Positions 4,328 to 46,741 of a DNA stretch of 51,506 nt are shown here, piece after piece. Where the stretch lies: the UHGV virus genome UHGV-0335272; one strand, given 5' to 3'. This stretch comes from a virus. Under the pieces are notes generated by a model. That model had not been told where the DNA came from and searched no databases. It saw only the letters and a list, made by a program, of their open reading frames with translations. Position 1 is the stretch's first letter; every line of letters begins with the position of its first letter. The position numbers were made by a program, and so were the translations under genes.

Positions 4328-4527
4328 GGCGGAGTATCCTCTTCTGTCGTGGCATCTTCAGCCTCAATTACCGGGATAAGTAACAGCAGCCCGGAGGGTA
4401 GTACCGCCGTGATAGCCACGTGCGGGTTAGCGGCAATAATCCGGGGGTAGCCCATCGGGTCACCGTAGTACTTCCATGCCAGCGCATCCCAGCGCTCCCC
4501 GTCACGGGTGACATGTTCAAGAAACAT
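4315..4527 (-). CDS. Tail protein X-like small protein
   Basis: 70-aa ORF between gpU-like and gpD-like genes, conserved position of tail protein X. Confidence 0.6.
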   Translation of the reverse strand: MFLEHVTRDGERWDALAWKYYGDPMGYPRIIAANPHVAITAVLPSGLLLLIPVIEAEDATTEEDTPPWLR

Positions 4528-5411
4528 CAGACGCTCCTTGCCATTATTCTGGCTGCCATTGTGCTTAACCCCGGAGACATGCGGGTAAAAGTGGTGCTGG
4601 CGGAGTTCAGCTGACCGGAAACCGCATCCAGCGCCGCCGCGATATTGCTGCCGTCGACGCCGTTCAGCGCGGACTGTGCCTGCTGAACATACGAGGCGGC
4701 CTCACCGGTGGCCCGAGCCAGGCTGACAGCTTCCGGCATGGACTCTGCCAGCGCATTAAACGCCGGGATACTGCTCCCCAGTGAACCGGAGATGTTCCCC
4801 AGCCCGCTCATCAGCCCTGGTACACGGGTCAGCGCCACTGTCGGGTTATCCTTCATTTTCTGTGCAATCCGCACCGCGCTCATGGTGGTCTGGAGCACTG
4901 ACTGTGCCTGCTTCGCATAGTTGACGCCGTCCCGGACATACTGCGCCACGCCGGAAGGTGACGGAACCGCAGAAGATATCGCGCCTGTGCCCGGTACCTG
5001 TGCACGGATAGCGGGCGGCTTCAGAGGGTTTTTAGGGTCGCCGATGTACTCCCGGAGAGACGCGGTGGCATTGACGGCCAGCACGTTGCCGGTGCTGTCG
5101 GTCTGTTCACTGGTCGCGGTCACGTCGGTAATCACGAACCAGCCGCGATAGTCGCCGTTGCCAAAGACCAGCGCCAGCGCCTGATGAGCTTTCATCGCTG
5201 TTCTCAGGCGGGCCAGCTCGACGTCGGGCACACAATAATGCTGGTGAAAGACCAGGCTTATCTGGATTTCGTCCAGCTTGTCGCCAATGAACTGCAGGCC
5301 GGGCTTCCCTTCGATGCGGGCATGCTCGGCGTAATCGACGCCGAACGTCGCCTCGAAGCCGTCCCAGTAGGTAATCAGCTCAAACTCAATATCGCCCAGA
5401 ACTGCAAACAT
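4527..5411 (-). CDS. DNA circularization protein N / tail gpU-like (Mu gp43-like)
   Basis: 294-aa ORF immediately downstream of tape measure gene. Confidence 0.7.
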   Translation of the reverse strand: MFAVLGDIEFELITYWDGFEATFGVDYAEHARIEGKPGLQFIGDKLDEIQISLVFHQHYCVPDVELARLRTAMKAHQALALVFGNGDYRGWFVITDVTATSEQTDSTGNVLAVNATASLREYIGDPKNPLKPPAIRAQVPGTGAISSAVPSPSGVAQYVRDGVNYAKQAQSVLQTTMSAVRIAQKMKDNPTVALTRVPGLMSGLGNISGSLGSSIPAFNALAESMPEAVSLARATGEAASYVQQAQSALNGVDGSNIAAALDAVSGQLNSASTTFTRMSPGLSTMAARIMARSV

Positions 5412-7876
5412 CAGCTGTACCTCCTGCGCTGTTGCTGAGCCAGCAGACGCTCCAGCATTTTTTCCAGCTCGTGCACGCTCATATTCAGCGCACCGGTCAG
5501 CCCGGCTGGCGCTGCTGTCTCTTTGCCATTCAGGTAAAACTGAGGATTAAAGTCGACCTGAATACCACCAGACATTCCGCCACCGGATGCAGCTGCACCA
5601 CGGCCTGAATATCCCACAGCCATGATTTCTGGCGACGGGATACGGGGTACATCCGGTGTCATTTCTTCAGCCAGCCGCTGCCCGGCCAGCGCCGCAAGCG
5701 GAGTGGTGCGCTGCAGGCCGATGGCTGCTCCCTGTGCGATGTTGTCACCAAAGCCCATAAACACCCGGCTCGGTGAGTGAATGCCCAGTTTTTCTTTAAA
5801 CCAGCCGCCGACGCTGTCTCCCATGTCGGTGACGGTGGTTTTGAGCGAGTCCCATTTGTTTTTGATGCCGTTTATCAGCCCGTCGATAAGATGGCCACCG
5901 AAGTCAGTGAACTTCGCTGGCAGATCAACGCCGAGATATTTCAGCGCAGCCGCAAAGGCTTTGTAGAGCAGACCAACCGGCGACCAGTTCATCAGCAGCT
6001 TACCAATCCCCACGATACCGCCGTTAAACGCCGTTTTAATGTCTGCCCAGCGCTGTTTAAACCAGCCGCTGACCGCTCCCCAGTTGCGGTAAATAAGGTA
6101 AGCAGCCACAGCAACAGCGGTGATGACCAGACCGATAGGGTTCATCATCAGCGCCCGGCCAATCCAGAGAACTGCCCGTCCGACGAGCATAATGCCGCGA
6201 ACAAGACTGCCACCAAGTACACGCCCCAGCGTACCGGCCCCTCTGGCGACAGCGCTGAAGCCGGTCACTAACCAGCGGAGTTTGCCGCCTTCACCCAGTG
6301 CAAGGGTCAGACGAAGCCAGTTAGCTCGAAGCCTGACAACACTTCCCCATACGCTGGTAAATGGTGAGATAAGGAGATTCAGCCCCAGCTTGAGACCGAT
6401 GGTGGCCATCTTAAAGGCCAGTAATGCACCTACAACCTTAATAGTGCCGCTGACGAGCTGCGGGTTTGCCGCTATCCATTTGCCAACGCTGTTCATTAAG
6501 GGGATGAACGTTTCCCCCAACTGGATCAAAGCCGGGCGTAATGATTCTCCGATGCTAATGGCCGAGTCGTTAAAACCAATCTGGGTACTGCGCCAGCGTC
6601 CTTCGAGTGTGTCATTCTGTTTTGCTGCATCCTTGTCCAGGGTAGACATCGCAGAGGGAGTGTTCATTTCCTGTTTATTAGACTGGTACTTATCCCAGCC
6701 CTGGCGCATCGCCAGCAGATGGTTGACAGTCTGAATATCGGTGAACACTTCCGCCAGTCCAAAGGATTCCATCAACTTCTGCTGGCCTTCCTGATCGCCT
6801 CTTGATCCTGCAGCTTTCCATTGTTGTACGAATGCCTTGCCTTTACCGTCGATAAACCGGTTGGCAATCATCAGAGAGGCTTCATACTGAGAGAGTCCCT
6901 GGGCTACATAATTTTGCATTGACCCCTGATAGTCCACTCCGGCTTTGGCATATTTCTGAATGGTATCTCCGCGCCCCATCGCCGCCAGCCAGTTAGACAT
7001 ATTGGTGACTGCTTCCTCTGCAGAGCCGCTGCCTTTACCCACTTCCAGACTGGCGACAATCTGGGTTATGGCGTCTTTACCGTAAATACCACGGGCCGCG
7101 AAAGCTTTGGCCATACCGGGCAACGCTTTCGCCATATCCTTCAGTTCAAATGAGCCGAGCTTGGCCCCAGTTGCCGCAATCCCAAAAGCCTGCTCCAGCT
7201 CCTTCGCATCGGTAATTTTAAGCGCATCGCTGAAGGCATAGGTCATTTTGGCGAGGTCTGTCATATCCGCTTTGGTGGCTGTGGCTGCTTTGCCCAGCAT
7301 TCCGGCAAACTTTGCTGCCTGTTCCGGGTTCATACCATCAGCAACCAGTTGACCAACACCACCCAACAGAGACTCCTGCAGCTGGTTAACCCTGAGCGAT
7401 GCCTGACGAATAGCAGTACCGATTGCCTGCTCCTGACGTGCATCCAGATCGCCGGTCACGCTGATATCGCGAAGCTGGGACTCAAACGAGGCATATTGTT
7501 TGATTGAGGCCATAACTGGTGACCCCAGCGTTCTGCCTATGGCATAGGTTTCTGCCCCCTGCCCATAGAGCGCCATGCGGTTAGCTTTCTGCGCATCACT
7601 GGTGGCAGATACCGCCGACAGACGACGCTGCTGGCGCTCAACCTGTTCCATTGTTCGACCAACCCGCAACAGAGCATTGTTCAGGTTCTGCATGGAAGAT
7701 GTACCGAGGTGACCATAGCGGGCAATTTTCTGAGTTAAATTATCTTGCCGCTCCTGCAGACGGCGTGATGTATCGCCAAGGGAGTCGAGGGCGCGTCGGG
7801 TACCGCTGACGGCAGAACGGAAGCTGCTTCCGACAATCCCGCCAATAATGACGCCAACTGAAAATTCACTGGCCAC
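5411..7876 (-). CDS. Tail tape measure protein
   Basis: 821-aa ORF, A/G/L-rich with predicted coiled coil and hydrophobic C-terminal segments, downstream of tail chaperone. Confidence 0.85.
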   Translation of the reverse strand: MASEFSVGVIIGGIVGSSFRSAVSGTRRALDSLGDTSRRLQERQDNLTQKIARYGHLGTSSMQNLNNALLRVGRTMEQVERQQRRLSAVSATSDAQKANRMALYGQGAETYAIGRTLGSPVMASIKQYASFESQLRDISVTGDLDARQEQAIGTAIRQASLRVNQLQESLLGGVGQLVADGMNPEQAAKFAGMLGKAATATKADMTDLAKMTYAFSDALKITDAKELEQAFGIAATGAKLGSFELKDMAKALPGMAKAFAARGIYGKDAITQIVASLEVGKGSGSAEEAVTNMSNWLAAMGRGDTIQKYAKAGVDYQGSMQNYVAQGLSQYEASLMIANRFIDGKGKAFVQQWKAAGSRGDQEGQQKLMESFGLAEVFTDIQTVNHLLAMRQGWDKYQSNKQEMNTPSAMSTLDKDAAKQNDTLEGRWRSTQIGFNDSAISIGESLRPALIQLGETFIPLMNSVGKWIAANPQLVSGTIKVVGALLAFKMATIGLKLGLNLLISPFTSVWGSVVRLRANWLRLTLALGEGGKLRWLVTGFSAVARGAGTLGRVLGGSLVRGIMLVGRAVLWIGRALMMNPIGLVITAVAVAAYLIYRNWGAVSGWFKQRWADIKTAFNGGIVGIGKLLMNWSPVGLLYKAFAAALKYLGVDLPAKFTDFGGHLIDGLINGIKNKWDSLKTTVTDMGDSVGGWFKEKLGIHSPSRVFMGFGDNIAQGAAIGLQRTTPLAALAGQRLAEEMTPDVPRIPSPEIMAVGYSGRGAAASGGGMSGGIQVDFNPQFYLNGKETAAPAGLTGALNMSVHELEKMLERLLAQQQRRRYS

Positions 7877-8054
7877 GCTGGTTATCCTCTGAAAGCGAAA
7901 AAACGTAAGGGGAATATCGGAGAGGCATGCAGAACAGCCGCGAGTGGCGGCTGTCAGGTGATGAGGAGTTACTGATTGTCGCCGAACTCGCTTTTGATTT
8001 GCTCTTCAGCCTGCTCCAGCCACATCTCCAGATCGTCAGTATCGAGGGCATCAA
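7866..8054 (-). CDS. Small ORF between tail chaperone and tape measure; either frameshift extension of the chaperone or an independent 61-aa ORF
   Basis: Open in the -1 frame relative to the chaperone ORF for about 31 nt of overlap; GGGGGAG lies 4 nt upstream of an in-frame ATG; no canonical slippery heptamer seen. Confidence 0.3.
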   Translation of the reverse strand: MMPSILTIWRCGWSRLKSKSKASSATISNSSSPDSRHSRLFCMPLRYSPYVFSLSEDNQRGQ

Positions 8055-8071
8055 TCTCCCCCGGCTGAAAT

Positions 8072-8398
8072 CTAAACCACCTCGCCAGCAGTCCCTGTGC
8101 CTGCGTCAGCATCTTTGTCGCTCTTGCCCAACCCCGTGATTTGCTGAAATCGGGTCTGCAGCTCCAGATAATCGGCCAGGTCCATGTTGTCCATGTCCTC
8201 CGGGAGCAGGCCGGTACTGCGGGAAATCAGTGGTTCATCCCAGTCAGCCGGGTCTTTATGCGTTTTCTTGACCAGTTTGAGGTCTTTAACCGTCAGGCGC
8301 TTAAGGGTGAGTTGAGAAATGGAGTTACCTGCTGCCGTGGTGAAAGGGAACTGCAGGACAAAGATTTCTGCTTCTGTTTGGGTCTGTGACATGTTCAT
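8072..8398 (-). CDS. Tail assembly chaperone (P2 gpE-like)
   Basis: 108-aa acidic ORF upstream of tape measure; conserved position. Confidence 0.6.
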   Translation of the reverse strand: MNMSQTQTEAEIFVLQFPFTTAAGNSISQLTLKRLTVKDLKLVKKTHKDPADWDEPLISRSTGLLPEDMDNMDLADYLELQTRFQQITGLGKSDKDADAGTGTAGEVV

Positions 8399-8460
8399 GC
8401 TCCTGTGTAAGTTCAGGGCAGTATGCCTGGTGACGCGGGGAACAGATATTAAAGGGGATT

Positions 8461-8484
8461 AAGAAGAAAGGGGCCGAAGCCCCT
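8461..8484 (-). terminator. Putative intrinsic terminator inside tail operon
   Basis: Minus-strand GGGGC-TTCG-GCCCC hairpin followed by TTTCTTCTT, directly after the stop of ORF 8491..8772. Confidence 0.4.
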
Positions 8485-8490
8485 GTGATA

Positions 8491-8772
8491 TCAGTGAGTA
8501 CGAAACCCTTTGCAGTTGCGCAGAAAGGTAATGAGCATCGCTTTCCCTTCGGTTTTACCGATGCCGGTAAACCAGTGGTCAGGTGGCTCCCATGCCTCAA
8601 TCAGGTCAGCGAGCTTTCGTGCTTTAGAGCGTGTGCAGTCAATCGGGTCATTGGTTTTACGGGTATTAAAAAGGTTCTCCACCCCCGGAATATCGAGGAT
8701 GGTAAACCAGGTGCCATTCCCCATGCCAATCGAACCACAGTTCCCGCCTTTATCTTCGATCTCAACGGTCAT
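8491..8772 (-). CDS. Hypothetical protein (tail-region small ORF)
   Basis: 93-aa ORF overlapping upstream ORF by 11 nt, followed by hairpin terminator. Confidence 0.45.
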   Translation of the reverse strand: MTVEIEDKGGNCGSIGMGNGTWFTILDIPGVENLFNTRKTNDPIDCTRSKARKLADLIEAWEPPDHWFTGIGKTEGKAMLITFLRNCKGFRTH

Positions 8773-9055
8773 CGTGGTTCCCTGATGCCAGCTGGGACTT
8801 CAGCCTGTACCCCTCAAACTGCCACAGCGCTTCAGTCGCATTGTGCTGCGCTTTAGCGATGGCCACCTTCCTACCGGTCTCTTCATCGAACAACCCCGGA
8901 TGCGCCGTGGCGCTGAATCCACTGCTGACCATAAAGCCATCCGGCATCAGTGCGACAGCAATGGTCAGCGTGGTGCCCGGAAAGTGATGGGTCTGGTAAT
9001 TCAGCGACGCCACCAGGTCGTCTATCGTCTTGCGCTCAACTTTAGGTACCACCAT
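8762..9055 (-). CDS. Hypothetical protein (tail-region small ORF)
   Basis: 97-aa ORF starting 3 nt after tail tube stop. Confidence 0.5.
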   Translation of the reverse strand: MVVPKVERKTIDDLVASLNYQTHHFPGTTLTIAVALMPDGFMVSSGFSATAHPGLFDEETGRKVAIAKAQHNATEALWQFEGYRLKSQLASGNHDDR

Positions 9056-9057
9056 GA

Positions 9058-9579
9058 TTATCCCCCGATATTGATGCGATAGTCAGTCAACTGGTCAACG
9101 CCACCGACGCGGAAGATGTTGGCCAGATAGTCCAGCTCCAGCAGCTCTTCACCATCCAGTACCTGCTTGATGTATGTGCAGGTGAAGCTACTGGAGAACT
9201 CGGCATTCTCATGCTGCTTGAACGTCCCCAGCGGGTTCTTCTTGAACATGATCGTCAGGAAGGTGACCAGCGGGATTTCATCAATCAACCCCTGAGAGCT
9301 GTAGCGCTGAACACTGGAACGGCACTGCAGCGCCAGCGATTTATACGGGTTCGCGGCAGACAGCATCGCATCGCGGTAGAAGCTGTTCCACTTGATCTCT
9401 CCTTCCAGCTTGTCGAAGCCTGACGGGAGTTCCACCTTACCCACCATCCCCAGCGCTTTATGTTCCTGCATGGTCATCGACACGTCGGGGAGCTTGACCT
9501 CCTCGGCCCGGCCCAGCAGGTTAGCGCTATCCAGATAGATGTTGGCATTGGTGATGCGGTTGATCTCAATCTTTGCCAT
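9058..9579 (-). CDS. Tail tube protein
   Basis: 173-aa ORF directly downstream of sheath gene. Confidence 0.8.
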   Translation of the reverse strand: MAKIEINRITNANIYLDSANLLGRAEEVKLPDVSMTMQEHKALGMVGKVELPSGFDKLEGEIKWNSFYRDAMLSAANPYKSLALQCRSSVQRYSSQGLIDEIPLVTFLTIMFKKNPLGTFKQHENAEFSSSFTCTYIKQVLDGEELLELDYLANIFRVGGVDQLTDYRINIGG

Positions 9580-11006
9580 CAGCTATTCCCCTTCAGGGTT
9601 AAGAGGTATTCCGAAGTGATCTCGGTCTCATACGTCAGTCGCTCCAGCGGAGGCGGTGGCGTGTATTTGTAGCTCAGTAACAGGTGACCGGCGGCAAGTT
9701 CCGTCTCTTCGTTACGGGCAGGATCGAACCAGCATTTAAAGCCCAGCAGAGCGCCATCGCCAATCATCTTGCGCCCGTAGGCGTTTACCGACTCCGTCAG
9801 CGCATCAATCAGCGCCTGGGTGATGGGCATATCAATGTACTGCTGGCTGAAGTAGCGCAGGGACTCGTTGATCACATCGCCGGTGCGGCGAATGTTCTCA
9901 AAGTTGCGCATATGCGTAACCGTTGGCCATGCTGCTGTCCGGTTGCCCCACAGACGCAGGCCGCTGCCGTAGCTGCTGAAGACCGTGGTGATACCCTGTT
10001 CGTTGAGCAGGTTCACCTCGCTCTGCGGGTCGTCAATCATTGCTGAGAGCTGGCGCTCCACGCCGGTGATACCCAGAATCTCCTGATTGGAGGACGACCA
10101 CCAGTAGCCCTTGTCCAGGTCGACTTTGGCACGCAGACCCGCAGCTCGCTGACTCAGCGGCTCCAGTCGTTCGCTGTTGGTGGCCGCGTCGTACACCCTG
10201 ACGTGTGGGTAGCACAGACGGACGCGGTCGGAGCTGGTATTGAAGTTAATGGTGCCTTCCGGGCCACGCCCTGCCAGAGCCTGAGCAAAAGTGGTACCCA
10301 CCGGCGCGTCGATGTAGGTCACCGCGCCCAGCTTTTCAGCCATGGCGATAAGCTCAACCGAGACGCTGTTCTGGGTACAGAACACAGGGGCAATCAGGAT
10401 TTTTGCGAAGTAGCCAAACAGGTTGAAGCTGTCGTTAAGCAGCTTCATGCCGGTTCGGTTGCCTGCGGCATTAACGGCACCGATGATATCAGCCGGGGTG
10501 ACTTTGGTCGGATCAGCATAGTTATAGCTGGCCTTCACCGTTGCATCTGCGGCAATGCTCTTACCAAGGTTGGTAATCACCCCGGTCTGCGCATCAAGCG
10601 AGTAGTCCTGACCTTCCACATAAGGTTGACCATCGCTGTCTGGCTTCAGTACCAGCTGCGCGACCACAGGGTTAGCCAGCTTCGCTTTGCCCGTCGCCTT
10701 GTCGAACGTTACGTCTTCATCGGCCACAGCGGTTTTATGCGCAGACGGATCAAGCACGTTAATGACCAGAACGGTGCCTGCGCCATGGTCGTAGATCGCA
10801 TCCAGTGCCTGTGGAATTGTAAAGCCGGTGAGCTGGCTGCCAAACGCCGCTGCATCTTTCTCAGACAGACACTGCACCAGCGTATTGACGTCTCCCATTG
10901 GGGCGGTACCAATCAGGCCAATGACGGCGGATTTCACCGTTTTAACCGGGCGGGCACCGTTTTCCACCTCAATGGTTTCGACGCCATGCAGATAGTTAGC
11001 TGACAT
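9579..11006 (-). CDS. Tail sheath protein
   Basis: 475-aa ORF, contractile sheath family by sequence character and synteny. Confidence 0.85.
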   Translation of the reverse strand: MSANYLHGVETIEVENGARPVKTVKSAVIGLIGTAPMGDVNTLVQCLSEKDAAAFGSQLTGFTIPQALDAIYDHGAGTVLVINVLDPSAHKTAVADEDVTFDKATGKAKLANPVVAQLVLKPDSDGQPYVEGQDYSLDAQTGVITNLGKSIAADATVKASYNYADPTKVTPADIIGAVNAAGNRTGMKLLNDSFNLFGYFAKILIAPVFCTQNSVSVELIAMAEKLGAVTYIDAPVGTTFAQALAGRGPEGTINFNTSSDRVRLCYPHVRVYDAATNSERLEPLSQRAAGLRAKVDLDKGYWWSSSNQEILGITGVERQLSAMIDDPQSEVNLLNEQGITTVFSSYGSGLRLWGNRTAAWPTVTHMRNFENIRRTGDVINESLRYFSQQYIDMPITQALIDALTESVNAYGRKMIGDGALLGFKCWFDPARNEETELAAGHLLLSYKYTPPPPLERLTYETEITSEYLLTLKGNS

Positions 11007-28194: not shown

Positions 28195-29352
28195 ATGCTG
28201 GTACTGAAGCAACAACTGAAAGAGGCCCGCATCCCGCAGGCGGTGGTGGCAAGAGCCGTCGCCGTTTCCGAGGCCACGCTGGCCCAGATTGTGAACCATA
28301 ACGAGTGGCCCCGCACCAGCCCCGAAGAGGTGCGCCAGCGTCTGGCGTCCTGGCTGGAAAGTCAGGGGATTAATACAGCGAAGAGTTTTGATGCTGCACA
28401 GAGCGCTGCCACGCCCTGTACAGCGGGTACAACCAACCTCAGTGAGGAAGAGAACATGTTACTCAAAAAGCAGGTGTTATTTCCAGCAACTAAAAAAGCG
28501 TTTGGCCTTTTCCGTGACCCGTTCGCCGATGAAGCCATGCAGGGTGCGGACGATGTGTTCACCACGCCGGATATCCGCTACGTGCGTGAGGCGTTGTTCC
28601 AGACTGCCCGCCACGGTGGCTTTCTGGCGGTTATCGGCGAGTCCGGCGCGGGTAAATCCACGCTGCGCCGCGACCTGATTGAACGCGTCAACCGTGAGAA
28701 CGCGCCGGTGATTGTTATCGAGCCATACATCATCGCCATGGAAGACAACGACGTGAAGGGCAAAACCCTGAAGGCGGCAGCTATCGCCGAGGCCATTATC
28801 AGCACCATCGCACCGCTGGAGAGTATCAAACGCAGCCAGGACGCCCGCTTCCGCCAGCTGCACCGCGTCCTGAAGGACAGCAGTCAGGCGGGGTTCAGCC
28901 ACGTTCTGGTTATTGAGGAGGCCCACAGTCTGCCCATCCCGACGCTGAAGCACCTTAAACGCTTCTTTGAGCTGGAGTCCGGCTTCAAGAAACTGCTGTC
29001 CATCGTGCTGATTGGCCAGCCTGAACTGGCGGACAAACTGTCTGAACGCAACATGGAAGTCCGAGAGGTCGTCCAGCGCTGCGAGGTGGTTGAACTGCTG
29101 CCTCTGGACAACAGTCTTGAAGAGTTTCTGACGTTCAAACTGCAACGCGCCGGTAAGCAGCTGGCCGACATCATGGACGCCAGTGCAGTGGAGGCCATCC
29201 GCGCCCGCCTGAGCAATCTGGGCAGTAACCGTAAAAGCATGGTCAGCCTGCTGTATCCGCTGGCCGTCAGTAACCTGGTGATAGCAGCCATGAATCTGGC
29301 CGCTGAAATCGGGGTTCCGCAGGTCAACGCCGACGTCGTCAAGGGGGTTTAA
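28195..29352 (+). CDS. Transposition ATPase (MuB-like AAA+)
   Basis: 385 aa; Walker A GESGAGKST, Walker B VLVIEEAHSL; N-terminal HTH-like region. Confidence 0.8.
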   Translation: MLVLKQQLKEARIPQAVVARAVAVSEATLAQIVNHNEWPRTSPEEVRQRLASWLESQGINTAKSFDAAQSAATPCTAGTTNLSEEENMLLKKQVLFPATKKAFGLFRDPFADEAMQGADDVFTTPDIRYVREALFQTARHGGFLAVIGESGAGKSTLRRDLIERVNRENAPVIVIEPYIIAMEDNDVKGKTLKAAAIAEAIISTIAPLESIKRSQDARFRQLHRVLKDSSQAGFSHVLVIEEAHSLPIPTLKHLKRFFELESGFKKLLSIVLIGQPELADKLSERNMEVREVVQRCEVVELLPLDNSLEEFLTFKLQRAGKQLADIMDASAVEAIRARLSNLGSNRKSMVSLLYPLAVSNLVIAAMNLAAEIGVPQVNADVVKGV

Positions 29353-32783: not shown

Positions 32784-33713
32784 CGCGGCGGCGACATTGC
32801 GCTGGGCATTGGTGACGAAGTGCTCTCGCCCGTAATGTTCCCCGTGCTGCACCAGCTGCTGGGCCAGACGCTGATCACCACCGACGGGAAGACGCTGCTG
32901 GGGGCAGATGACAAGGCGGGTATCGCGGAGATCATGACGGCGCTGGCGGTGCTGAAGGGCAAAAACATCCCGCACGGGGATATCCGCGTGGCCTTTACGC
33001 CGGATGAAGAGGTCGGCAAGGGCGCGAAGCATTTCGACGTGGAAGCCTTTAACGCGCAGTGGGCCTATACCGTCGACGGCGGCGGCGTCGGTGAACTGGA
33101 GTATGAAAACTTCAATGCCGCGTCCGTCACGATCAAAATTGTCGGCAACAACGTTCATCCTGGCTCGGCGAAAGGCGTTATGGTGAACGCGCTGTCGCTG
33201 GCGTCCAGAATTCATGCAGAAGTCCCGGCGGAAGAGAGCCCTGAACAGACCGAAGGGTATGAAGGTTTCTATCACCTGACCAGCATCAAAGGCACCGTGG
33301 ACAGCGCGCAGATGCACTACATCATCCGCGATTTCGACCGCAAAGCCTTTGAGGCGCGCAAGCGCAAGATGATGGAGATCGCGAAGAAGGTCGGTAAAGG
33401 ATTACACCCAGATTGCTATATTGAGCTGATCATTGAAGACAGCTATTACAACATGCGCGAGAAGGTGATGGCGCATCCGCATATTCTCGATATTGCCCAG
33501 CAGGCGATGCGCGACTGCGATATTGAACCGCAGCTGAAGCCGATTCGCGGCGGCACCGACGGTTCTCAGCTGTCGTTTATGGGGCTGCCGTGCCCGAACC
33601 TGTTTACCGGTGGCTACAACTACCATGGCAAGCATGAGTTTGTGACGCTGGAAGGGATGGAAAAAGCGGTGAAGGTGATAGTACGGATAGCGGAGTTGAC
33701 CGCGAAGCGGTAA
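32784..33713 (+). pseudogene. pepT: Peptidase T, 5'-truncated by prophage insertion (3' ~300 codons present)
   Basis: Reading frame resumes at ...[25 protein letters not shown], matching internal PepT sequence; no upstream PepT N-terminus in window. Confidence 0.85.
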
Positions 33714-37179: not shown

Positions 37180-38469
37180 TTAAATGACTTTTTTCATGCT
37201 CCCTATGCCTTGGGGGCGTCCTGGGGGCAAAGCTGTCGGCATCTGATTGTTCAGCATGTTGACCTGATCCTGGTTCATATCGCCAATCCACTTCGAATAA
37301 ACCTCATACACCATACGCGCATCCTCATGGCCCATCTGGCTGGCGATAAAGGACGGGTTCGCGCCGGCCATAAGCGTCCAGCAGGCGTAAGTATGCCGGG
37401 ACTGATAAGGGTTTCTCTCACGAATACCTGAAAGTTTAGTTCCCTGTCGCCAGCCATACGAAATCGAATTTTTAGAAAAATAGCTCTCATTCACTGAAGA
37501 TTTCTTTTCCGGCGAAAAAACGAAACGCAGATTTTGTTGTTCGGTTTTGCCGATTTCGCGATGATGAAAAATAATCTGCTGGCGCGGGTTGTTGCCGGTG
37601 ATTTCGTACTGCTCCAGCAGCGCATCATGCGCGGGCTTGAGCAACGTGATCGTTCTGATTCCCGCATCTGTTTTCGGCGGCACAAATACCCGTTTGTTTG
37701 TCAGACTCCTGGACACGTGTATCTCACCTTTTTTCAAATCAATGTCATCCCACGCCAGGGCGCAAATTTCGCCGGGCCTCATTCCCGTATGCACGGCAAC
37801 GATGATGATCAAAGCCAGTTTGCGGGGAAGGGCTGCAATTAGCGCCTGGTACTCATGAAGTAGAAGCGGATCGGGGTCTGCCTTAGATAGCTTGAGCCTG
37901 GATACGCCCTCATAAGGAGCGTGTAATATAAACTGACTTCGATTAGCAAGCTTCAGCATTTCTGATAAAACAGCCATCTGTTTATTGACCGTTGAGGGCG
38001 CGCGCCCCTTTTTAACCAGGTTAGGCATAGAAGGGTTTAACACGCAGCCCGTCAGCAGCTCTTTGCGATAATGCAGTATGTCGGCGTGTTGAATATCAGC
38101 CAGGGGGGTATTTTCTCCCACTACACGCTTCAGGGTGTTAACTGCAGATGTGAGTGAATGCAGAGTAGCTCCTGACACCTCCAGTGCTTTTGTCTCGATG
38201 AAAAAATCGCTCAGCTCACTGAACGTCGCGATCCGCTTTGTTGATGAGAATTTTTTAAGGGCCTTTGACTCAGGGAAGCGCGCCGCATAGTCGAACTGGC
38301 CGAACTGGATCTCACTTACGATGACGGCGCGAAGGTTTCCCGCCTTCTTGATGTTGCTGCTGTTAACCACCCAGCCACGGAGAACTTCGCGGCAGCGAAT
38401 GCCGCGATAGGTAAACGTTATCCTGATTTTTCCGTTATGAAGTTCAACGCCAGTTGGAAAGTTCATCAT
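37180..38469 (-). CDS. Tyrosine integrase (phage integrase family)
   Basis: 429 aa; C-terminal catalytic region with RHTYACW ... [11 protein letters not shown] pattern; first gene at prophage boundary. Confidence 0.85.
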
Positions 38470-38693
38470 GCTTCCTGAATAAATCTATTAATCAGCGGAA
38501 AGTTGTACCAGACCAAAGCGCGCTTGCTTTCCCCACCGGGTACCGCGGGTACTCGCTTAAAATGAACTCCTTCAATCCAGCATCCGAGGCGATAAGCTTT
38601 TATTTGCCTGTCATCCAGCCCCGTTTTCTCAGTTAGCTTTCCCGCCACCATCCACTCTTCATCGAAAATGATTTGCGCCATGCTTAACTCCAT
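38466..38693 (-). CDS. Excisionase-like protein
   Basis: 75-aa ORF overlapping int start by 4 nt. Confidence 0.5.
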
Positions 38694-38742
38694 GACGCCG
38701 CCACGATACCGCAGCGGCAGATAGTATATTGATTGTCAAAAA

Positions 38743-38982
38743 TCACCTGCCGAGTCCAGGGAGGCACTGGAGGTGCCTGGCACCGGTCATTGCCGTTGCC
38801 ACATAACTACGGGGGCGGTTAACAACCTCGACCGTAATTTTTCTCCCTTGGATCTTGACGGTGTAAAACGTCTGTTTGTCGTTGCGGCCATGCTCGCCGT
38901 ATTTGTCGAGATGGCATTTTAGAGCGGCGGCACATGCAGGCCCGCCGATGCTGTCTCCCTTGCTTCGGTTAATCAGACGCAC
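38743..38982 (-). CDS. Hypothetical small protein
   Basis: 79-aa ORF in early-left operon. Confidence 0.4.
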   Translation of the reverse strand: MRLINRSKGDSIGGPACAAALKCHLDKYGEHGRNDKQTFYTVKIQGRKITVEVVNRPRSYVATAMTGARHLQCLPGLGR

Positions 38983-40873
38983 AGGAGCCTTCCTGATGGT
39001 TTATAACGCCGCGGGCAAGTCCGGCGGCCATAGCCGGTAATTCCTCATACTGGTTGCAAAAGGCCGGGTTGGAGCATAAGCCCTGCAGGGCAGCAATGGT
39101 CAGCTGTTGCAGGTAGGTAACAGGCGAAAGCGGCGCGTTTGTCACAGGTGCTGGATCCGGCTCGGTTTTATGCTTTGCAGTAACGGCTGGTGGATCGAGC
39201 ACGACAGATTTTGGTGGTGCCGGGCGGCGGTATTCAACGATCGCATCAAGGGCGATTTTCTGACGCACGCTGATATCGTCAGACCAGCTATCCAGCATGG
39301 TGGTTGCCACGTCGTGGATCTCCTCGTCGGAGAACTCAGGAGACAGGCAAAATTCTGTGGTGGTGATATCGGCCATTAGCAGTGGAATAACATCAGAAAC
39401 GAGCTGGCCGGTGCCTGCCACCACATCTTCTGCTTCTTCTTTCCCCATGATGTTGGTGCGTCCAGAAATAAGGTCATTAAGCGCATGCAAAATCGCAAAG
39501 TCGCGATTATTTGGTGCAGGTGGTACTTCCTGTTTTTCGACCTCATTTGAGGGGGAATTATTAATCAGTGCATCAACAGAGAAGACTCCGCCGCCCAGGT
39601 TCTCCACCCGTGGTTGGTCAATCGCTTGCTCTTCTGGTGCCGGGCTCTGAGTGAATGCCTCGTTGAGTTCATTGTTGAGTTGCGCAGCTTCGCCTGGGCA
39701 AACTGCTGGTGGCAGAGCTTCGCCCGGTACAGTCGATTCGGTTTCATCATTTTCTTTTTTCTCAACATTAGTGCGAGGTTTAGGGCGGCAGGCTATATCA
39801 ACCGTTTTCTGGTCAGGGTTCGCATGGTCACGTTCAACCAGCTCGCGATTAATGTATTCACGCAAGGCAACAGGATCCATCCAAATGTTCTCCGGGGCGG
39901 ATTTAATCAGGGCGATAATGGCCGCACGGGAATAATCCAGAATGCCTGGGGTGCTGCGCAGTTTTTTCCACCACGCTGTAAAACGGGTGTCCTGTTCTGC
40001 TTCGGCCATGGCTTTCGCTGGAATCATGTATTTATTCGGGATCCAGTAAATGTCGATCTCGTCGTACATACTCAGAATGGCAACAGCCACTTCGATACGC
40101 AGCGTAGAGAGGTTATGAACCAGATCCGGGCTGCGGTCTGTCTTGTTACCACCGCCCAGTGTGGAGCCGGTGTCTGTACGGTTTTCTTCTGAGTTAGTGC
40201 TGTCAGCCAGAGGTCGCTTATCAACCGGGGTATCGATCCATTTAGCGATCTGCTTTTTGATGTCCGGCCACTGTGCAGAGTCTTTTGTATTTTCTCGTAT
40301 CCATGCGAGCAGCTGCTCCTGCCGTTCCGGAGCCAGCGCCAGCGCGCGGGTCTCTTTCGCCAGTGCTTCTGCAAGCTCGCGGGCAAAGCTGGGTTCATCA
40401 TCATTCTTCAGATCGACGATCTGGCCGTACTGCGCTGTAGTGATTCCAGGGACCGGGCCGAACAGTGCCAGGCAAGCTGCACGGGATGCCACGTCGAGCT
40501 GCGCGACAGTTTTAATTTCTTCCAGTGCCTTGTTGTCGTCCCATTCCGTCTTTTCTTCAGATTCTGGCTGTGGTGCTGCAGCTGGTTCACCTGCATTCAC
40601 ATTCCAGATAGCAACGGTATCGAAAAATTCAGATGAGAAGACATCAAGCTCAGGGCACGGTAAACCTTCACGGTGTTCCCAGATCTTCACTTTGAAGAAA
40701 TCATCAATATGTTCCGGGTGTTCAGCTGCCAGCTTGCCGAAAATAACGGCTTCAGCGATGGCTTTTGTTGCCGCATTAACTGCTGTGGCAAGCGGTTTTA
40801 AATCGGGGTGTTTTTTCAATGCTTTATCTTTTGGGAAATAAGCACCACCAAAAACTTTTAATTCAACAGACAT
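38969..40873 (-). CDS. Large acidic protein of unknown function (early-left operon)
   Basis: 634 aa, no P-loop or recognisable catalytic motif by eye; Pro/Glu-rich linker segments. Confidence 0.6.
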   Translation of the reverse strand: MSVELKVFGGAYFPKDKALKKHPDLKPLATAVNAATKAIAEAVIFGKLAAEHPEHIDDFFKVKIWEHREGLPCPELDVFSSEFFDTVAIWNVNAGEPAAAPQPESEEKTEWDDNKALEEIKTVAQLDVASRAACLALFGPVPGITTAQYGQIVDLKNDDEPSFARELAEALAKETRALALAPERQEQLLAWIRENTKDSAQWPDIKKQIAKWIDTPVDKRPLADSTNSEENRTDTGSTLGGGNKTDRSPDLVHNLSTLRIEVAVAILSMYDEIDIYWIPNKYMIPAKAMAEAEQDTRFTAWWKKLRSTPGILDYSRAAIIALIKSAPENIWMDPVALREYINRELVERDHANPDQKTVDIACRPKPRTNVEKKENDETESTVPGEALPPAVCPGEAAQLNNELNEAFTQSPAPEEQAIDQPRVENLGGGVFSVDALINNSPSNEVEKQEVPPAPNNRDFAILHALNDLISGRTNIMGKEEAEDVVAGTGQLVSDVIPLLMADITTTEFCLSPEFSDEEIHDVATTMLDSWSDDISVRQKIALDAIVEYRRPAPPKSVVLDPPAVTAKHKTEPDPAPVTNAPLSPVTYLQQLTIAALQGLCSNPAFCNQYEELPAMAAGLARGVINHQEGSCASD

Positions 40874-40904
40874 AATTACCTCTATAATTTTAGGGGGATG
40901 ATAT

Positions 40905-41138
40905 TTAGCGATATGGTTTTCGAATAACGCACCTTAAATTTTTTAACGCGTTACGTCTTTCTCTTTTTTCATTGCATTGCTCACATAAATAAATCGTGCG
41001 CTTAAAGGGATATATATCTGTTTTCCTTTCATGCATTTCCGATTTTTTATATTCGTGGCAGCAAACAGCGCAATGACAAATGATGTCATCCATATCAGTT
41101 AAGTTGTTGGCGTTTGTGATCGTAATAAGACATGCCAC
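40905..41138 (-). CDS. Small Cys-rich zinc-finger-like protein
   Basis: CHCAVCC ... CEQC cysteine pattern. Confidence 0.4.
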   Translation of the reverse strand: MACLITITNANNLTDMDDIICHCAVCCHEYKKSEMHERKTDIYPFKRTIYLCEQCNEKRERRNALKNLRCVIRKPYR

Positions 41139-41367
41139 AAGCGTTCTGCGCTTCTGCGAAGTTCACAGACAGCAAGCTAATGTGCTCAACAGCACAAATC
41201 GGGCAATGAAATTCACCGAGCACGTAGCCACCGTCAAGCACAACGGTTACGGGGCCAGAAGATGGCAGATGAACAACGCCAGAAATGGCACCGTTAATAT
41301 TAAAAGTTGCAAGGTCTTTATTGACGATAGCCAGGTTCATTTCTACGGTTGTAATAGTTGCTTTCAT
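41095..41367 (-). CDS. Hypothetical small protein
   Basis: 90-aa ORF; overlaps the next ORF by about 44 nt, so one of the two starts is probably wrong. Confidence 0.35.
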   Translation of the reverse strand: MKATITTVEMNLAIVNKDLATFNINGAISGVVHLPSSGPVTVVLDGGYVLGEFHCPICAVEHISLLSVNFAEAQNACGMSYYDHKRQQLN

Positions 41368-41434
41368 TTTACAGTCCTTAATTTAAGGTGTGAAAATCCC
41401 AGCCAGTTAAGGCATCGGTTTTAGGTTGGTCGAA

Positions 41435-41620
41435 TTAAATAACTTTTAGATTATTGCGCCATTCCTGATAAGGCTGGCGATGCACAACAAAATTTCTGTA
41501 TTTCCGTAATACTTTCCAGGCGGCATGGCATCCCGCAACATCGCGAAGAAATACTGAAGTTACGAGTTTTCCTTGTGCCCAGGCAATTTGTTGTTCCGGT
41601 GTTAATTGTGTCTTATCCAT
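41435..41620 (-). CDS. Hypothetical small protein
   Basis: ORF trimmed to MDKTQLTPEQQIAWAQGK... with upstream GGAG. Confidence 0.4.
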   Translation of the reverse strand: MDKTQLTPEQQIAWAQGKLVTSVFLRDVAGCHAAWKVLRKYRNFVVHRQPYQEWRNNLKVI

Positions 41621-42271
41621 ATATGAACACTCCACTATAAAACCTGATTTAAAAAGGGCGGTGTATACGTGGACCACGGGAAACGCATATACCACCAAGA
41701 ACTAAACACAGCCTCATGTTGCGATTACCCACAACTGGAAGCGCACTCAATCAATTTTGACTTAACGACAAAGCTCAAATTGGTGAGGCGAGTGCGCTCT
41801 CAATTGTGGGCGATTCATCTGCCCTGGTCCGGCGGCGCCACCTCGCCAGAGCAGATGTAAAGGGCAGTTACGCTGCCATGCGGCTTATTGGTCTGTGCAG
41901 GTATTTCAAGTCCTGCATCGTGGGGTTTGCTCTCCGCCCCAGGTTCTCCCCGCTACGCTTTAGCGCGCAACCTGAGAAAACCGCCTTCAAGCCTTTGGCT
42001 TACGCCACATTCATGAAACTGCCTGGACGAACTCGGAAAAGCTCAGTGCTTCTTCACCTTCCGCCAGACTGTTGAAATATTCTTCGTATGCTTTTTCCAT
42101 CTCGAACCCCTGTTGCTGCTTTGCTCGGCTTATCACCCTTATCGCCGGGTAGGCGGAACGTTTACTGATTACTGCGTGTTTTGTTGGTCTAAGTTTATAA
42201 AAAAATAAACCAATATGTAAAGTTAATGATAAACAAAAAGGCGTGAAAAATTGGATGTGGTTGAATTTGGA

Positions 42272-42297
42272 GAAAAAAAAGACCGCAACAGGCGGTC
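42272..42297 (-). terminator. Intrinsic terminator downstream of repressor gene
   Basis: Minus-strand GACCGC-CTGTT-GCGGTC hairpin followed by TTTTTTTT, 10 nt after the repressor stop. Confidence 0.6.
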
Positions 42298-42307
42298 TTT
42301 AGGGGAG

Positions 42308-42703
42308 TTAGTCTATTTCGAGGTCTTTGAGCATCTGAAGGATTTCTTGTTTGCTCTTGCCTTTAAGCCTTGCCTTGAGCTCATTGTCTATGGAGTTAAC
42401 TTGGGCCCTGAGGTTTACCATGTGCTGCTCTTTTTCCCATTCAGCAAGGCTGTCGAAAAGGTCTAGAAGTTCTTCATGGCGCGCGTCAAATGGACGAGGG
42501 GATCTTATCTCTTCACCCATAGGTTCTTCATCAAGATAACCAGGAGCCATGCCGTAATCTCGTTCAATACGGCGCGCAGCTCTCTCGCCGAACGACGCTT
42601 TGCCGTTGATCAGCTGTGAAAGGTAGCTCTTCTCTTTCTCCGGCAGGGTTCTGCTGGAAAACCATGCCGCTAGGCGCTTACGCCTGATTTCTTTTGTGTC
42701 CAT
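42308..42703 (-). CDS. Prophage repressor (HTH, CI-like, no peptidase domain)
   Basis: 131 aa; HTH-like segment EKSYLSQLINGKASFGERAARRIERDYGM; divergent from cro-like gene. Confidence 0.65.
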   Translation of the reverse strand: MDTKEIRRKRLAAWFSSRTLPEKEKSYLSQLINGKASFGERAARRIERDYGMAPGYLDEEPMGEEIRSPRPFDARHEELLDLFDSLAEWEKEQHMVNLRAQVNSIDNELKARLKGKSKQEILQMLKDLEID

Positions 42704-42743
42704 GCAGTCATTTTGATTAGTAATTTCTAAACAAGCAAAAACT

Positions 42744-42772
42744 TGACATTAATGTTTAGTGGTTTATAAACT
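42744..42772 (+). promoter_or_regulatory. Candidate early rightward promoter with overlapping palindromes
   Basis: TTGACA then 15 to 17 bp then TATAAA/TAAACT; GTTTATAAAC palindrome over the -10; CTAAAC ... GTTTAG inverted repeat. Confidence 0.4.
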
Positions 42773-42797
42773 TGCAACTCAACACACAGGAGCAATT

Positions 42798-43055
42798 ATG
42801 CAACTCAATGACTTTTTGAAAGCCGGTGGACCAAAGATCCGCAAGGCGCTGGAGCAACACCTTGGGATATCGAAATCTTACCTCTCCCAACTTGCAACGG
42901 GGCGAGCAGCTATTTCGCCGAGTCGATGCATCGTTATCGAAACCTTTACCGATGGAAAGGTTTCTCGTTCTGACATGCGGCCAAGCGATTGGGCTGAAAT
43001 TTGGCCTGATTACAAGCCAAAAAATAACACAACAGCTCAGGAGGATACTGACTGA
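42798..43055 (+). CDS. Cro-like HTH regulator
   Basis: ORF trimmed to MQLNDFLKAGGPKIRKALEQHLGISKSYLSQLATGR... with GGAG RBS. Confidence 0.6.
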   Translation: MQLNDFLKAGGPKIRKALEQHLGISKSYLSQLATGRAAISPSRCIVIETFTDGKVSRSDMRPSDWAEIWPDYKPKNNTTAQEDTD

Positions 43056-43507
43056 TGGAAATCAAAAAACTGGCATGTGAGCTGGAGTCCTGGGCGCAGG
43101 AAAAGGGCTGGAAGACAGTCACGCAGCTGATAACCCCGCATCACTTTGGCGATCTGCTTCAGCCATTGGATAACGTGACGGACCCTGACGAGTACGCGCG
43201 GCGCTTGCACAACAACAAGCAGATTATTCAGCGTGCATTCCGCAACGATACACCTAACTACCTGAAACAGGCTGAAGCCCTGAGCTATGCCATCCGCACC
43301 GCCATTGATAACGAGCTAGAGCAGAAAGACTGCATGCTCTACCGGGCGGCAAGGGTTAACAAAGAGTGTATCGAAGCCACCAATGCAGTCTTCACTGGCA
43401 AACCGCAACCGGTAATCCGCCGCGAGACTCTGGAAGCAATCGACGCGCTGGCGCAGCTGGTCGGCGTCAAAGTGAAGCTGGTTTCGACTTGTTCAAACGT
43501 AGCCTAG
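43055..43507 (+). CDS. Hypothetical regulatory protein (CII/YdaT-like position)
   Basis: 150-aa ORF directly after cro-like gene. Confidence 0.35.
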   Translation: MEIKKLACELESWAQEKGWKTVTQLITPHHFGDLLQPLDNVTDPDEYARRLHNNKQIIQRAFRNDTPNYLKQAEALSYAIRTAIDNELEQKDCMLYRAARVNKECIEATNAVFTGKPQPVIRRETLEAIDALAQLVGVKVKLVSTCSNVA

Positions 43508-43529
43508 TTCAGTTGTATCGAGGTGTTCT

Positions 43530-44447
43530 ATGAGCATGGAACTGATGGTTCAGGCGATGAAGGTCAAGGTAGGAAACCCGCTTCGTAAGCTGGTTCTGCT
43601 TAAGCTGGCCGATAACGCAAGTGACCAGGGCGAATGCTGGCCGAGTTATCAGCATATCGCTGATCAGTGTGAGATCAGCCGTCGTTCCGTCATGAATCAT
43701 GTTGCCGCGCTTTGCGAGTCTGGTCTGATGCGAAAAGAGACCAGATCGGGGCCGAAAGGCAATGGCAGCAATTTCTACCGACTAACCCTGAGCGGTGCAA
43801 ATACCAGTGCAAGGGTAGTGCAGGAGATTCACCAGAATGGTGAAGCAAATTCACCAGGGGCTGGTGCAGGAAATTCACCAGATGGTGCAGCACGTTCACC
43901 AGGGGATAGTGAAGGAGATTCACCCAGAATCAGTCACTCTTCTGAACCAGTCAAAGAACCAGAAAATACTTCTTGTCCGGAGGCTTCGCCGTCGGACGGA
44001 AAATTGACAAAAACCGAATTTTTAAAGCGCCACCCAGAAGCGGTGGTCTACAGCCCTGCAAAACGCCAGTGGGGCAGTCAGGAAGATTTGACCTGTGCGC
44101 AATGGATTTGGAAGCGCGTGCTGAAACTCTACGAGGAGGCCGCAACCTTTGACGGCGAGATCGTTCGTCCGAGAGAGCCGAACTGGACGGCCTGGGCGAA
44201 CGAAGTTCGTCTGATGCGCACCCTTGATGGCCGTAGCCACAAGCAAATTTGTGAAATGTTCAAGCGCGTCCAGAGCGATACGTTCTGGGTTCGCCAGGTC
44301 AAATGCCCGGCCAAACTGCGCGAAAAATGGGATGACCTGATTATCCGCCTGTCGGCGCCGGGCACAGGGCATTACCAGGCCGGTGGACGGGATATCAATC
44401 AGATCTCCCGTCCCGATAACACCGTTCCGCCAGGATTCAGGGGGTAA
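43530..44447 (+). CDS. Replication initiation protein (O-like, N-terminal HTH)
   Basis: N-terminal LRKLVLLKLADNASDQGECWPSYQHIADQCEISRRSVMNHVAALCESGLM; upstream of DnaC-like gene. Confidence 0.6.
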   Translation: MSMELMVQAMKVKVGNPLRKLVLLKLADNASDQGECWPSYQHIADQCEISRRSVMNHVAALCESGLMRKETRSGPKGNGSNFYRLTLSGANTSARVVQEIHQNGEANSPGAGAGNSPDGAARSPGDSEGDSPRISHSSEPVKEPENTSCPEASPSDGKLTKTEFLKRHPEAVVYSPAKRQWGSQEDLTCAQWIWKRVLKLYEEAATFDGEIVRPREPNWTAWANEVRLMRTLDGRSHKQICEMFKRVQSDTFWVRQVKCPAKLREKWDDLIIRLSAPGTGHYQAGGRDINQISRPDNTVPPGFRG

Positions 44448-44449
44448 AC

Positions 44450-45190: not shown

Positions 45191-45207
45191 ATTTTGAGGT
45201 GAAAATT

Positions 45208-46349: not shown

Positions 46350-46656
46350 GTAAGACTTTCACCGCAAAAGGGCACATATCATTCTTAATTCAATGAAAGC
46401 GCGAACCCAATGGATGATTATCCAGGTCGATATGAACAGGCAACAACCTCTGGCTGGATAACTCCTGGTAGAGCTAGAATGACGATGCATTTATCACTGC
46501 TGTTTAATACAGATTAAAACAATGATGCTAAAATCTTGGTCTACATCAAAGATCTGTGTAACTGACTGATATTATTGAGTTGGTGTGATTTTGTTGTGGC
46601 TTATGACAAAATTTGATTGATCTTTTTTGTGGTTGTGACTAGAGGTCTTGTCAATT

Positions 46657-46697: not shown

Positions 46698-46741
46698 TTT
46701 GATTCTAAACTAACAGTATTGAAGTAATCAGAGATTCAGTC

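Follow-up and report, generated by a model that had tools for sequence, protein, structure and literature searches.

Two accessory genes, one of the Acb4 family, at a probable recurrent cargo site in the tail operon of a BcepMu-like prophage

The tail operon of a BcepMu-like transposable prophage carries two small open reading frames (ORFs), ORF-A and ORF-B, between the genes for the tail tube and a tail assembly chaperone. They lie on the minus strand at positions 8,461-9,055 of UHGV virus genome UHGV-0335272, the whole 51,506 nucleotides (nt) of which are called the window here. The explanation favoured by the analysis, and considered probable, is that they are two independently acquired accessory genes in a recurrent slot of BcepMu-like prophages, which runs from the stop codon of the tube gene to a terminator or attenuator hairpin. 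Both ORFs are insertions, because the tube gene stands directly before the chaperone gene in BcepMu and in 39 of 78 related species. Membership of ORF-A in the Acb4 (PF13876) family of phage immune-signal sponges is well supported. ORF-B belongs to an uncharacterised family and is an accessory gene rather than a tail gene.

Layout of the tail operon

The arrangement that an earlier, sequence-only reading had described is present in full: two ORFs of 97 and 93 amino acids (aa) with an 11-nt overlap, a hairpin trailed by a T-rich stretch, and a gap before the chaperone gene, measured here at 92 nt. The operon is laid out as follows, in the order of transcription.

9579-11006, minus strand: tail sheath gene (orthologue annotation, Pfam PF04984 and PF17482), first of the abundant sheath/tube pair and ahead of the cargo
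9058-9579, minus strand: tail tube gene, P2 FII-like (PF04985, E 4.6e-54), upstream border of the cargo slot
8762-9055, minus strand: ORF-A, 97 aa, ATG start (ORF list, PF13876)
8491-8772, minus strand: ORF-B, 93 aa, ATG start (ORF list, phrog_1239)
8459..8484 (stem-loop 8484..8469), minus strand: terminator-like hairpin with T-rich tail (hairpin scan, relatives)
92 nt: spacer from the ORF-B stop codon to the chaperone start
8072-8398, minus strand: tail assembly chaperone gene, P2 gpE-like (PF10109, E 4e-19), downstream border of the slot
7969-8112: frameshift extension ORF of the chaperone (weak GpE match)
5411-7876: tape measure gene (ORF list)

The chaperone genes of relatives go under the annotations 'phage tail assembly protein' and 'GpE family'. 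ORF-A starts 2 nt past the tube stop codon and overlaps ORF-B at 8762-8772 (ATGACCGTTGA), and the last tube codons contain a GGGGG Shine-Dalgarno-like run that is available to whichever gene comes next. Both ORFs are real genes under purifying selection: measured against orthologues, the ratio of nonsynonymous to synonymous substitution is low, at 0.00-0.10 in ORF-A and 0.03-0.17 in ORF-B (11-39 synonymous differences), and that of the tube gene is 0.01-0.03. A comparison of GC content (57% in ORF-A, 51% in ORF-B, 55% in the tube gene) reveals no clear compositional mark of the cargo.

The search for a separate cargo promoter returned nothing credible, with 3 promoter-like sites found and 2.1 expected by chance; the sole site recorded, at 9086..9057 with 9 of 12 matches, has its predicted transcription start downstream of the ORF-A ATG, inside ORF-A. 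No flanking direct or inverted repeats suggestive of an insertion sequence or transposon mechanism emerged from a repeat search. The left and right junctions of ORF-A share ATCGGGG/ATCAGGG similarity, which was judged too short to interpret. An Rfam scan of 7500-10000 yielded nothing credible, NCBIfam had no match for either ORF, and PDB sequences, searched with each protein as a single sequence, returned spurious matches only (WD40 repeats, a homeobox).

Insertion history and distribution

The history of the locus can be read from its relatives. A megablast search with a 1.9-kb region retrieved many E. coli prophages and the phages PhiKM (Bcepmuvirus) and 'KP12', most of which lack about 290 nt of the query and are annotated with a tube gene, one hypothetical 93-aa gene and a chaperone gene. 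Only E. coli GON1437 and JCH8249 additionally carry a 'Gp49 family protein'. Alignment identifies ORF-A as a clean, precise indel of about 290 nt. Relatives lacking it read ...ATCGGGGGC TGA CG GTG ACC..., that is, the tube stop codon, 2 nt and the ORF-B start; relatives possessing it have the identical GGGGG run before the ORF-A ATG, and their ORF-B ATG lies within the final ORF-A codons. Among 5426 complete E. coli genomes, at blastn sensitivity, ORF-B DNA is found in 640 (about 12%) and ORF-A DNA in 2.

Cargo-less relatives reveal the unoccupied junction. BcepMu has gp40 (tube) and then gp41 (chaperone), separated by 121 nt and with neither ORF between them, and the corresponding gap is 51 nt in a Salmonella relative and 5 nt in Pseudomonas phage Bise, again without cargo. 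A profile scan of one genome per species extended this comparison to 80 loci, in 78 of which the downstream chaperone was found; a locus counts as having no cargo when the gap between tube and chaperone is at most 200 nt.

No cargo: 39/78 loci
Intact ORF-B only: 10/78 loci
ORF-B remnant: 5/78 loci
Acb4-type ORF plus ORF-B: 5/78 loci
Other inserts: 19/78 loci

In these species-level loci an Acb4-type ORF at the slot always has ORF-B downstream and never stands there alone, consistent with the Acb4-type ORF having arrived second, in a lineage with ORF-B in place. The exact ORF-A protein occurs in 535 blocks of a public assembly index, and the order in all places listed for it is tube, ORF-A, ORF-B, chaperone. 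Taken together, the ancestral order was tube, hairpin, chaperone; ORF-B was gained in an enterobacterial sub-lineage, and ORF-A was gained later in a few members, including the window, directly upstream of ORF-B. Judged from these sequences, ORF-A is a rare secondary insertion between the tube stop codon and ORF-B.

Loss is also seen. In Photorhabdus spp. (loci L031-L035, at about 4510-4680) the tube gene and the hairpin enclose no more of ORF-B than a 56-aa remnant truncated at the N terminus, and in one of these loci (L034) not even a remnant scores. The Photorhabdus remnants show that cargo can decay while the tail module of the prophage stays.

ORF-A and the Acb4 family

ORF-A scores 49.1 bits (E 8e-13) with Pfam PF13876 (Phage_gp49_66; N4 Gp49 / Sf6 gp66), whose cut-off is 27, over 79 of 82 model positions. 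The founding member of the family is Acb4 (anti-CBASS 4) from phage SPO1, which has 96 aa, assembles into a pinwheel tetramer and sequesters four molecules of 3'3'-cyclic GMP-AMP (3'3'-cGAMP), also binds cyclic UMP-AMP (cUA) and other cGAMP isomers, and alone suffices to overcome a cyclic oligonucleotide-based antiphage signaling system (CBASS) in vivo (bioRxiv 10.1101/2024.12.30.630793; 10.1101/2025.07.12.664507). Chang et al. tested eight homologues; every one bound cGAMP, and those of phages with Gram-negative hosts also bound cyclic di-AMP (cAA) (10.1101/2024.12.30.630793; 10.1101/2025.07.12.664507). By its sequence, ORF-A thus belongs to a counter-defence family rather than to a toxin family.

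Profile and structural comparisons lead to the same family. A profile of 83 family sequences that includes ORF-A matches SPO1 Acb4 in the PDB (9E4W, chain 9e4w_A) at E 1.9e-8; the profile was needed, as the single ORF-A sequence gave no 9E4W match among PDB sequences. An AlphaFold2 model of the monomer (predicted local distance difference test score 85.6) places helices at 8-17 and 58-95 and strands at 19-24, 31-36 and 42-48, the same succession of helix, three strands and long helix as described for Acb4. In a Foldseek search of the PDB with this model, the top 12 matches are all 9E4W chains (probability 1.00, template-modelling score about 0.55-0.6), followed by proteins containing a dsRBD (a domain that binds double-stranded RNA); the Acb4 paper reports that structural matches of Acb4 itself likewise include dsRBD proteins. 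ORF-A and SPO1 Acb4 are alike in size (97 versus 96 aa), in a protomer of the order alpha-beta-beta-beta-alpha with a long C-terminal helix, which is predicted for ORF-A, in the profile-level match, and in both pocket aromatics: F41 and F56 of ORF-A correspond to F48 and F62 of SPO1, the two stacking residues. They differ in that identity is only about 20% and most ligand contacts are replaced.

Several features of ORF-A weigh against the favoured explanation. Only 2 of 10 SPO1 ligand-contact residues are identical; N63 is replaced by D57, and the rest differ as well. ORF-A deviates from the consensus of its own clade at several near-invariant positions, two arginines among them being missing (Q70 and T74 instead), and the long helix contains a 4-residue insertion. 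Given these departures in pocket, arginines and helix, the ligand could differ or binding could be lost. Moreover, the phage of the window is temperate and transposable and carries ORF-A in its late tail operon; SPO1 is lytic, and its Acb4 is reported to be expressed early, with binding activity detected early. In favour of the explanation, PF13876 genes occur within structural modules elsewhere too (phiV10 p03, BcepMigl gp36).

The first alternative to be weighed is that ORF-A has the Acb4 fold and binds another ligand, such as nucleotides of Thoeris, Pycsar or type III CRISPR systems, or RNA, with dsRBD-like ancestry. The eight differing contacts, the lost arginines and the helix insertion all speak for it, as do the dsRBD proteins that rank next among the structural matches. 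Set against these are the eight diverse homologues of Chang et al., every one of which bound 3'3'-cGAMP despite divergence, and the composition of the pocket within the family: at 5 of 10 pocket positions (T29, F41, A51, F56 and D57) ORF-A has the commonest residue among 82 aligned PF13876 members, mostly about 40% identical to it. This alternative is regarded as unlikely, although it is the strongest of those considered. For ORF-A as an Acb4-type sponge, the exact ligand is one that we infer by analogy with the characterised members.

ORF-B and its family

ORF-B aligns over its full length with phrog_1239, a family of no known function, its residues 1-93 covering positions 1-96 of the 96 in the profile (E 5.3e-45). 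Its match to DUF7739 (PF24881) reaches 19.3 bits, below the cut-off of 27 (E 0.0017), and some close relatives carry a precomputed PF24881 match; the relationship is probably real but marginal. Profile searches, a check proposed in the sequence-only reading, accordingly identified one of the two proteins: ORF-A as a PF13876/Acb4 member, with ORF-B matching only the function-less phrog_1239 and the sub-threshold DUF7739. When 1.84 billion representatives were searched exhaustively with HMMER, no more than 62 relatives of ORF-B emerged, nearly all of about 93 aa, with the family motifs NGTWF, TNDP, W-PP-W and C-GF. A literature search found no mention of DUF7739, PF24881, phrog_1239 or Sf6 gene 22.

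The homologues of ORF-B reside in early accessory regions of podoviruses and siphoviruses, phages without a contractile tail. Gene 22 of Sf6 lies in the early-left operon between DUF2737/Abc2 and Ea22-like/Lar-like genes, and further homologues are found in HK75 and CUS-3, in Edwardsiella phage EPP-1 between rdgC and int, in Enterobacter phage vB_Ecl_MII_001 among EaA/EaE genes near xis and int, and in phages of about 95 kb, including Yersinia fHe-Yen8-01. The Sf6 protein is about 44% identical to ORF-B over 77% of its length, with common motifs, and both are small unannotated accessory genes; the Sf6 gene stands in a podovirus early-left (PL-type) region, whereas ORF-B stands in a late tail operon. 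In 66 IMG/VR contigs that carry an ORF-B homologue the neighbouring genes are highly mosaic, with no tube, chaperone or Acb4 gene within 4 kb of it. One homologue points the other way and counts against an accessory role: gp123 of fHe-Yen8-01 (L007 3001-3309), 38% identical to ORF-B, is annotated as a 'particle associated protein'. This phage is a 92-kb lytic phage in which gp123 lies near an ADP-ribosyltransferase toxin gene, and a literature search found no publication on it.

The predicted model of ORF-B is of high confidence and has an alpha/beta fold that most resembles the small protein inhibitors DMP12 (a Neisseria DNA mimic, 3W1O) and CdiI (B. pseudomallei E479, 5J4A). Identity to these proteins is 8-9%, none of the Foldseek E-values reaches significance, and ORF-B lacks an acidic character (net charge 0, isoelectric point 6.7), so the model suggests a resemblance of fold and no membership. 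A role as a counter-defence or host-takeover inhibitor is the working hypothesis for ORF-B, one that we think rather less probable than its opposite.

ORF-B could also be the functional partner of ORF-A, as a second sponge or an inhibitor of another arm of defence, the two forming a small anti-defence island. An Acb4 gene at the slot is always directly upstream of, and overlapping, ORF-B; known sponges are smaller than 100 aa and often fused or clustered, a size that the 93 aa of ORF-B share, and its fold is confidently predicted. However, ORF-B is far commoner alone, none of the 66 other ORF-B loci has Acb4 nearby, and its fold is unlike that of any solved sponge in the PDB copy searched. A partnership is accordingly somewhat less probable again than a different ligand for ORF-A.

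The hairpin between cargo and chaperone

The hairpin AGGGGCTTCGGCCCCT (8484..8469) lies 6 nt past the stop codon of ORF-B; TTCTTCTTAA comes after it. It has a 6-bp stem with 5 GC pairs, a UUCG loop and a tail with T at 6 of 8 positions. The predicted free energy is -11.8 kcal/mol, and the z-score of -1.6 in a 61-nt context is unremarkable alone.

Its conservation is more telling. In the 80 loci, counted with a spacer of at least 40 nt, a terminator-like hairpin is located at most 130 nt upstream of the chaperone gene in 57, compared with 2.7 expected from dinucleotide shuffles. Its distance upstream of the chaperone stays within 42-98 nt in every case, in gaps from 88 to 2124 nt and with cargo present or absent. 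In BcepMu, GGCCCGCTTCGGCGGGCC plus TTTTTT lies 30 nt past the tube gene with no cargo, and the Salmonella relative has TTCGGGGCTGCGGCCCCGAA and then TTTAAAA. P2 has a GC hairpin after the tube gene FII. Stem sequences vary by clade (AGGGGC..GCCCCT; GTCGGTG..CGCCGAC; AGGGAGAG..CTCTCCCT; AAGGAGGG..CCCTCCTT; AACGGCCCGC..GCGGGCCGTT). The hairpins of BcepMu gp40 and of the window are both GC-rich stem-loops between tube and chaperone and have the TTCG loop in common. In the window, two cargo genes have displaced the hairpin to about 570 nt from the tube stop codon, whereas those of P2 and BcepMu are directly downstream of the tube gene; the P2 hairpin differs further in having no T tract. A literature search on terminators after tube genes returned only papers on the 'tail terminator protein', and the P2 and BcepMu sequences were inspected directly.

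Because relatives keep the hairpin whether or not they have ORF-A or ORF-B, it is ancestral to the junction: a putative terminator or attenuator of the tube gene that is older than the cargo. The sequence-only reading had taken it for a terminator belonging to the two-gene module, an assignment that its presence in cargo-less relatives such as BcepMu overturns. A terminator within the structural operon is normal for the BcepMu-like tail module and is by itself no sign of insertion. Given its fixed distance before the chaperone, cargo usually lies between the tube stop codon and the pre-existing hairpin; the exceptions, with the hairpin before the cargo, are a Neisseriaceae locus (L075) and several Pectobacterium loci.

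Cargo in other species

The slot holds different genes in different hosts. Pectobacterium and Symbiopectobacterium have a 66-aa ORF there. In six Pectobacterium species (loci L049 at 4540-4872, L051, L053, L055, L057 and L058) a 110-aa ORF resembles a plant-type ferredoxin (PF00111, 21.6 bits); its cluster-binding cysteines are replaced (..PYSSRAGADPSSAA..), and it appears to be a degenerate, cofactor-less ferredoxin. Neisseriaceae bacterium TC5R-5 (L075) encodes a protein with a CdiA-CT RNase-A-type toxin domain at 4596-5486 (PF18431, E 1e-31) and a CdiI_2 immunity protein at 5496-5843 (PF18593, E 1e-17), the pair being inserted after the tube hairpin. Iodobacter sp. BJB302 (L088, 4685-6541) has a 2.1-kb insert coding for a DUF4145 protein, a HEPN-like protein of 221 aa and an ORF of 91 aa, which looks like a defence-type cassette in the tail operon. 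Chromobacterium has PAAR-containing genes in the slot.

Other loci contain less gene-like or disruptive material. An IS4-type DDE transposase (PF01609) lies between ORF-B and the chaperone in Pantoea stewartii ATCC 8199 (L020, 5132-6091), an insertion that probably disrupts the tail operon of this prophage. In Lonsdalea spp. (L043-L047, at about 4520-4930) the spacer of 350-405 nt between tube and hairpin contains only implausible Arg/Pro-rich ORFs and may represent either a gene in decay or an element that is non-coding.

Together with the ORF-B remnants of Photorhabdus, this diversity of cargo identifies the slot as an accessory-gene site rather than a place for tail components. Classical morons of lambdoid phages (the Hendrix/Juhala concept) have their own promoter and terminator, and the anti-CRISPR (acr) loci nested in head-morphogenesis operons of Mu-like Pseudomonas phages have their own promoter and an aca regulator. 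The slot resembles both: extra genes stand between morphogenetic genes that are adjacent in relatives, content varies while position is fixed, and the cargo would serve phage-host conflict rather than virion assembly. The window cargo differs from them in that no promoter of its own was detected and the terminator belongs to the resident operon. Insertion between adjacent genes, one mark of a moron, is therefore seen here, and a promoter and terminator proper to the insert are not.

The sequence-only reading had described a tightly coupled gene pair, with toxicity and phage exclusion as phenotypes to look for. As one coupled two-gene module with its own terminator, the ORFs would form a toxin-antitoxin or superinfection-exclusion cassette. 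The 11-nt overlap suggests translational coupling, the Neisseriaceae slot does hold a true toxin/immunity pair, and that of Iodobacter holds DUF4145 and HEPN-like proteins. This module is nevertheless very improbable. ORF-A and ORF-B are inherited independently, as the E. coli counts (640 against 2) and the contigs with ORF-B and no neighbouring Acb4 gene indicate; PADLOC defence-system models match neither ORF at E up to 1; the ORF-A family is one of counter-defence, which fits better than defence; and the terminator predates the cargo.

The suspicion that these are inserted accessory genes rather than core tail genes, voiced in the same reading, is borne out by the cargo-less half of the species loci, by the family of ORF-A and by the homologues of ORF-B in phages of other tail types. 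Conservation of both ORFs in all relatives, with recognisable tail domains, is not what was found. Least probable of all, and barely credible, is that both are lineage-specific tail-assembly or accessory proteins (an extra chaperone, or a stabiliser of sheath or tube), in spite of their place within the tail operon on the same strand without a promoter of their own, the fixation of ORF-B in a large enterobacterial sub-lineage and the particle annotation of its distant Yersinia homologue, since neither ORF has a tail family in Pfam, PHROGs or NCBIfam, both are missing from BcepMu and half of the relatives while tube and chaperone are otherwise conserved, ORF-B is reduced to remnants in Photorhabdus prophages, and homologues of both occur outside tail modules in podoviruses and siphoviruses.

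Proposed mode of action

For the favoured explanation, two independently acquired accessory genes in a recurrent slot, a sequence of steps can be proposed. Both ORFs would probably be co-transcribed with the abundant sheath/tube message from a late promoter, because they have no convincing promoter of their own and are located upstream of the hairpin. Translation of the cargo would probably start by way of the Shine-Dalgarno run at the end of the tube gene, with ORF-B probably coupled translationally to ORF-A through the ATGACCGTTGA overlap. The attenuator would lower expression of the chaperone, tape-measure and baseplate genes, and the high dosage upstream of it would suit a sponge that acts in 1:1 stoichiometry.

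By analogy with SPO1 Acb4 and the eight homologues of Chang et al., ORF-A most likely forms a homotetramer. By sequestering the cyclic dinucleotides of CBASS (3'3'-cGAMP and cUA, with cAA as well in Gram-negative clades), the tetramer would keep the CBASS effector from ever being activated. The weakest step concerns ORF-B, which may be a small counter-defence or host-takeover protein that binds a host protein or ligand.

Other features of the window

The label of Mu-like prophage given in the sequence-only reading is upheld. The element is a BcepMu-like transposable prophage with an rve-type transposase, an AAA+ B-like gene, a CI-type repressor and Mu gp36/gp37-like head-tail genes, and its closest named phages are members of Bcepmuvirus. 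From the roxA-phoQ-phoP region, which is 78% identical to that of E. coli, the host is placed in the Enterobacteriaceae, as a species other than E. coli. Further coordinates in the window are as follows.

26415-28184: rve-type transposase of the BcepMu-like prophage
28195-29352: AAA+ B-like gene of the BcepMu-like prophage
37180-38469: integrase of a second, lambdoid-type prophage
43530-44447: HTH_36 replication protein, lambdoid-type prophage
44450-45190: DnaC/IstB-like protein, lambdoid-type prophage
48874-50361: C-5 cytosine DNA methylase, lambdoid-type prophage

An M20 peptidase ORF resembling PepT (32820-33713, plus strand), of only 297 aa, abuts the early (transposase) end of the BcepMu-like prophage and is followed by roxA, phoQ and phoP; the prophage may have integrated into pepT. 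The lambdoid-type prophage (37180-51506) begins directly past phoP and also encodes DUF1627. Beside the repressor region of the BcepMu-like prophage, a D12-class (Dam-like) N6-adenine DNA methyltransferase (23082-23852, plus strand) is likely another anti-restriction accessory gene.

Implications

The finding is largely explained by work of 2024-2025 on Acb4; what is newly offered is the candidate family of ORF-B and a cargo site defined by synteny. A bolder reading, held only tentatively and thought unlikely, is that the ORF-B family is a new counter-defence family and the slot a dedicated high-expression site at which genes for anti-defence and competition are swapped. If true, the cargo exchanged there would comprise Acb4, ORF-B, the CdiA-CT/CdiI pair, the DUF4145 and HEPN-like proteins, and the cysteine-less ferredoxin. 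The 93-aa family of ORF-B would be a cheap candidate for anti-defence screens, and the junction from tube stop codon to hairpin is one from which new cargo genes could be harvested by simple synteny. By its family, ORF-A gives a transposable prophage that is widespread in enterobacteria an immune-signal sponge of the Acb4 type, which would provide a natural system for asking how a temperate phage uses a sponge that is apparently expressed late, and whether the prophage alters CBASS in the lysogen.

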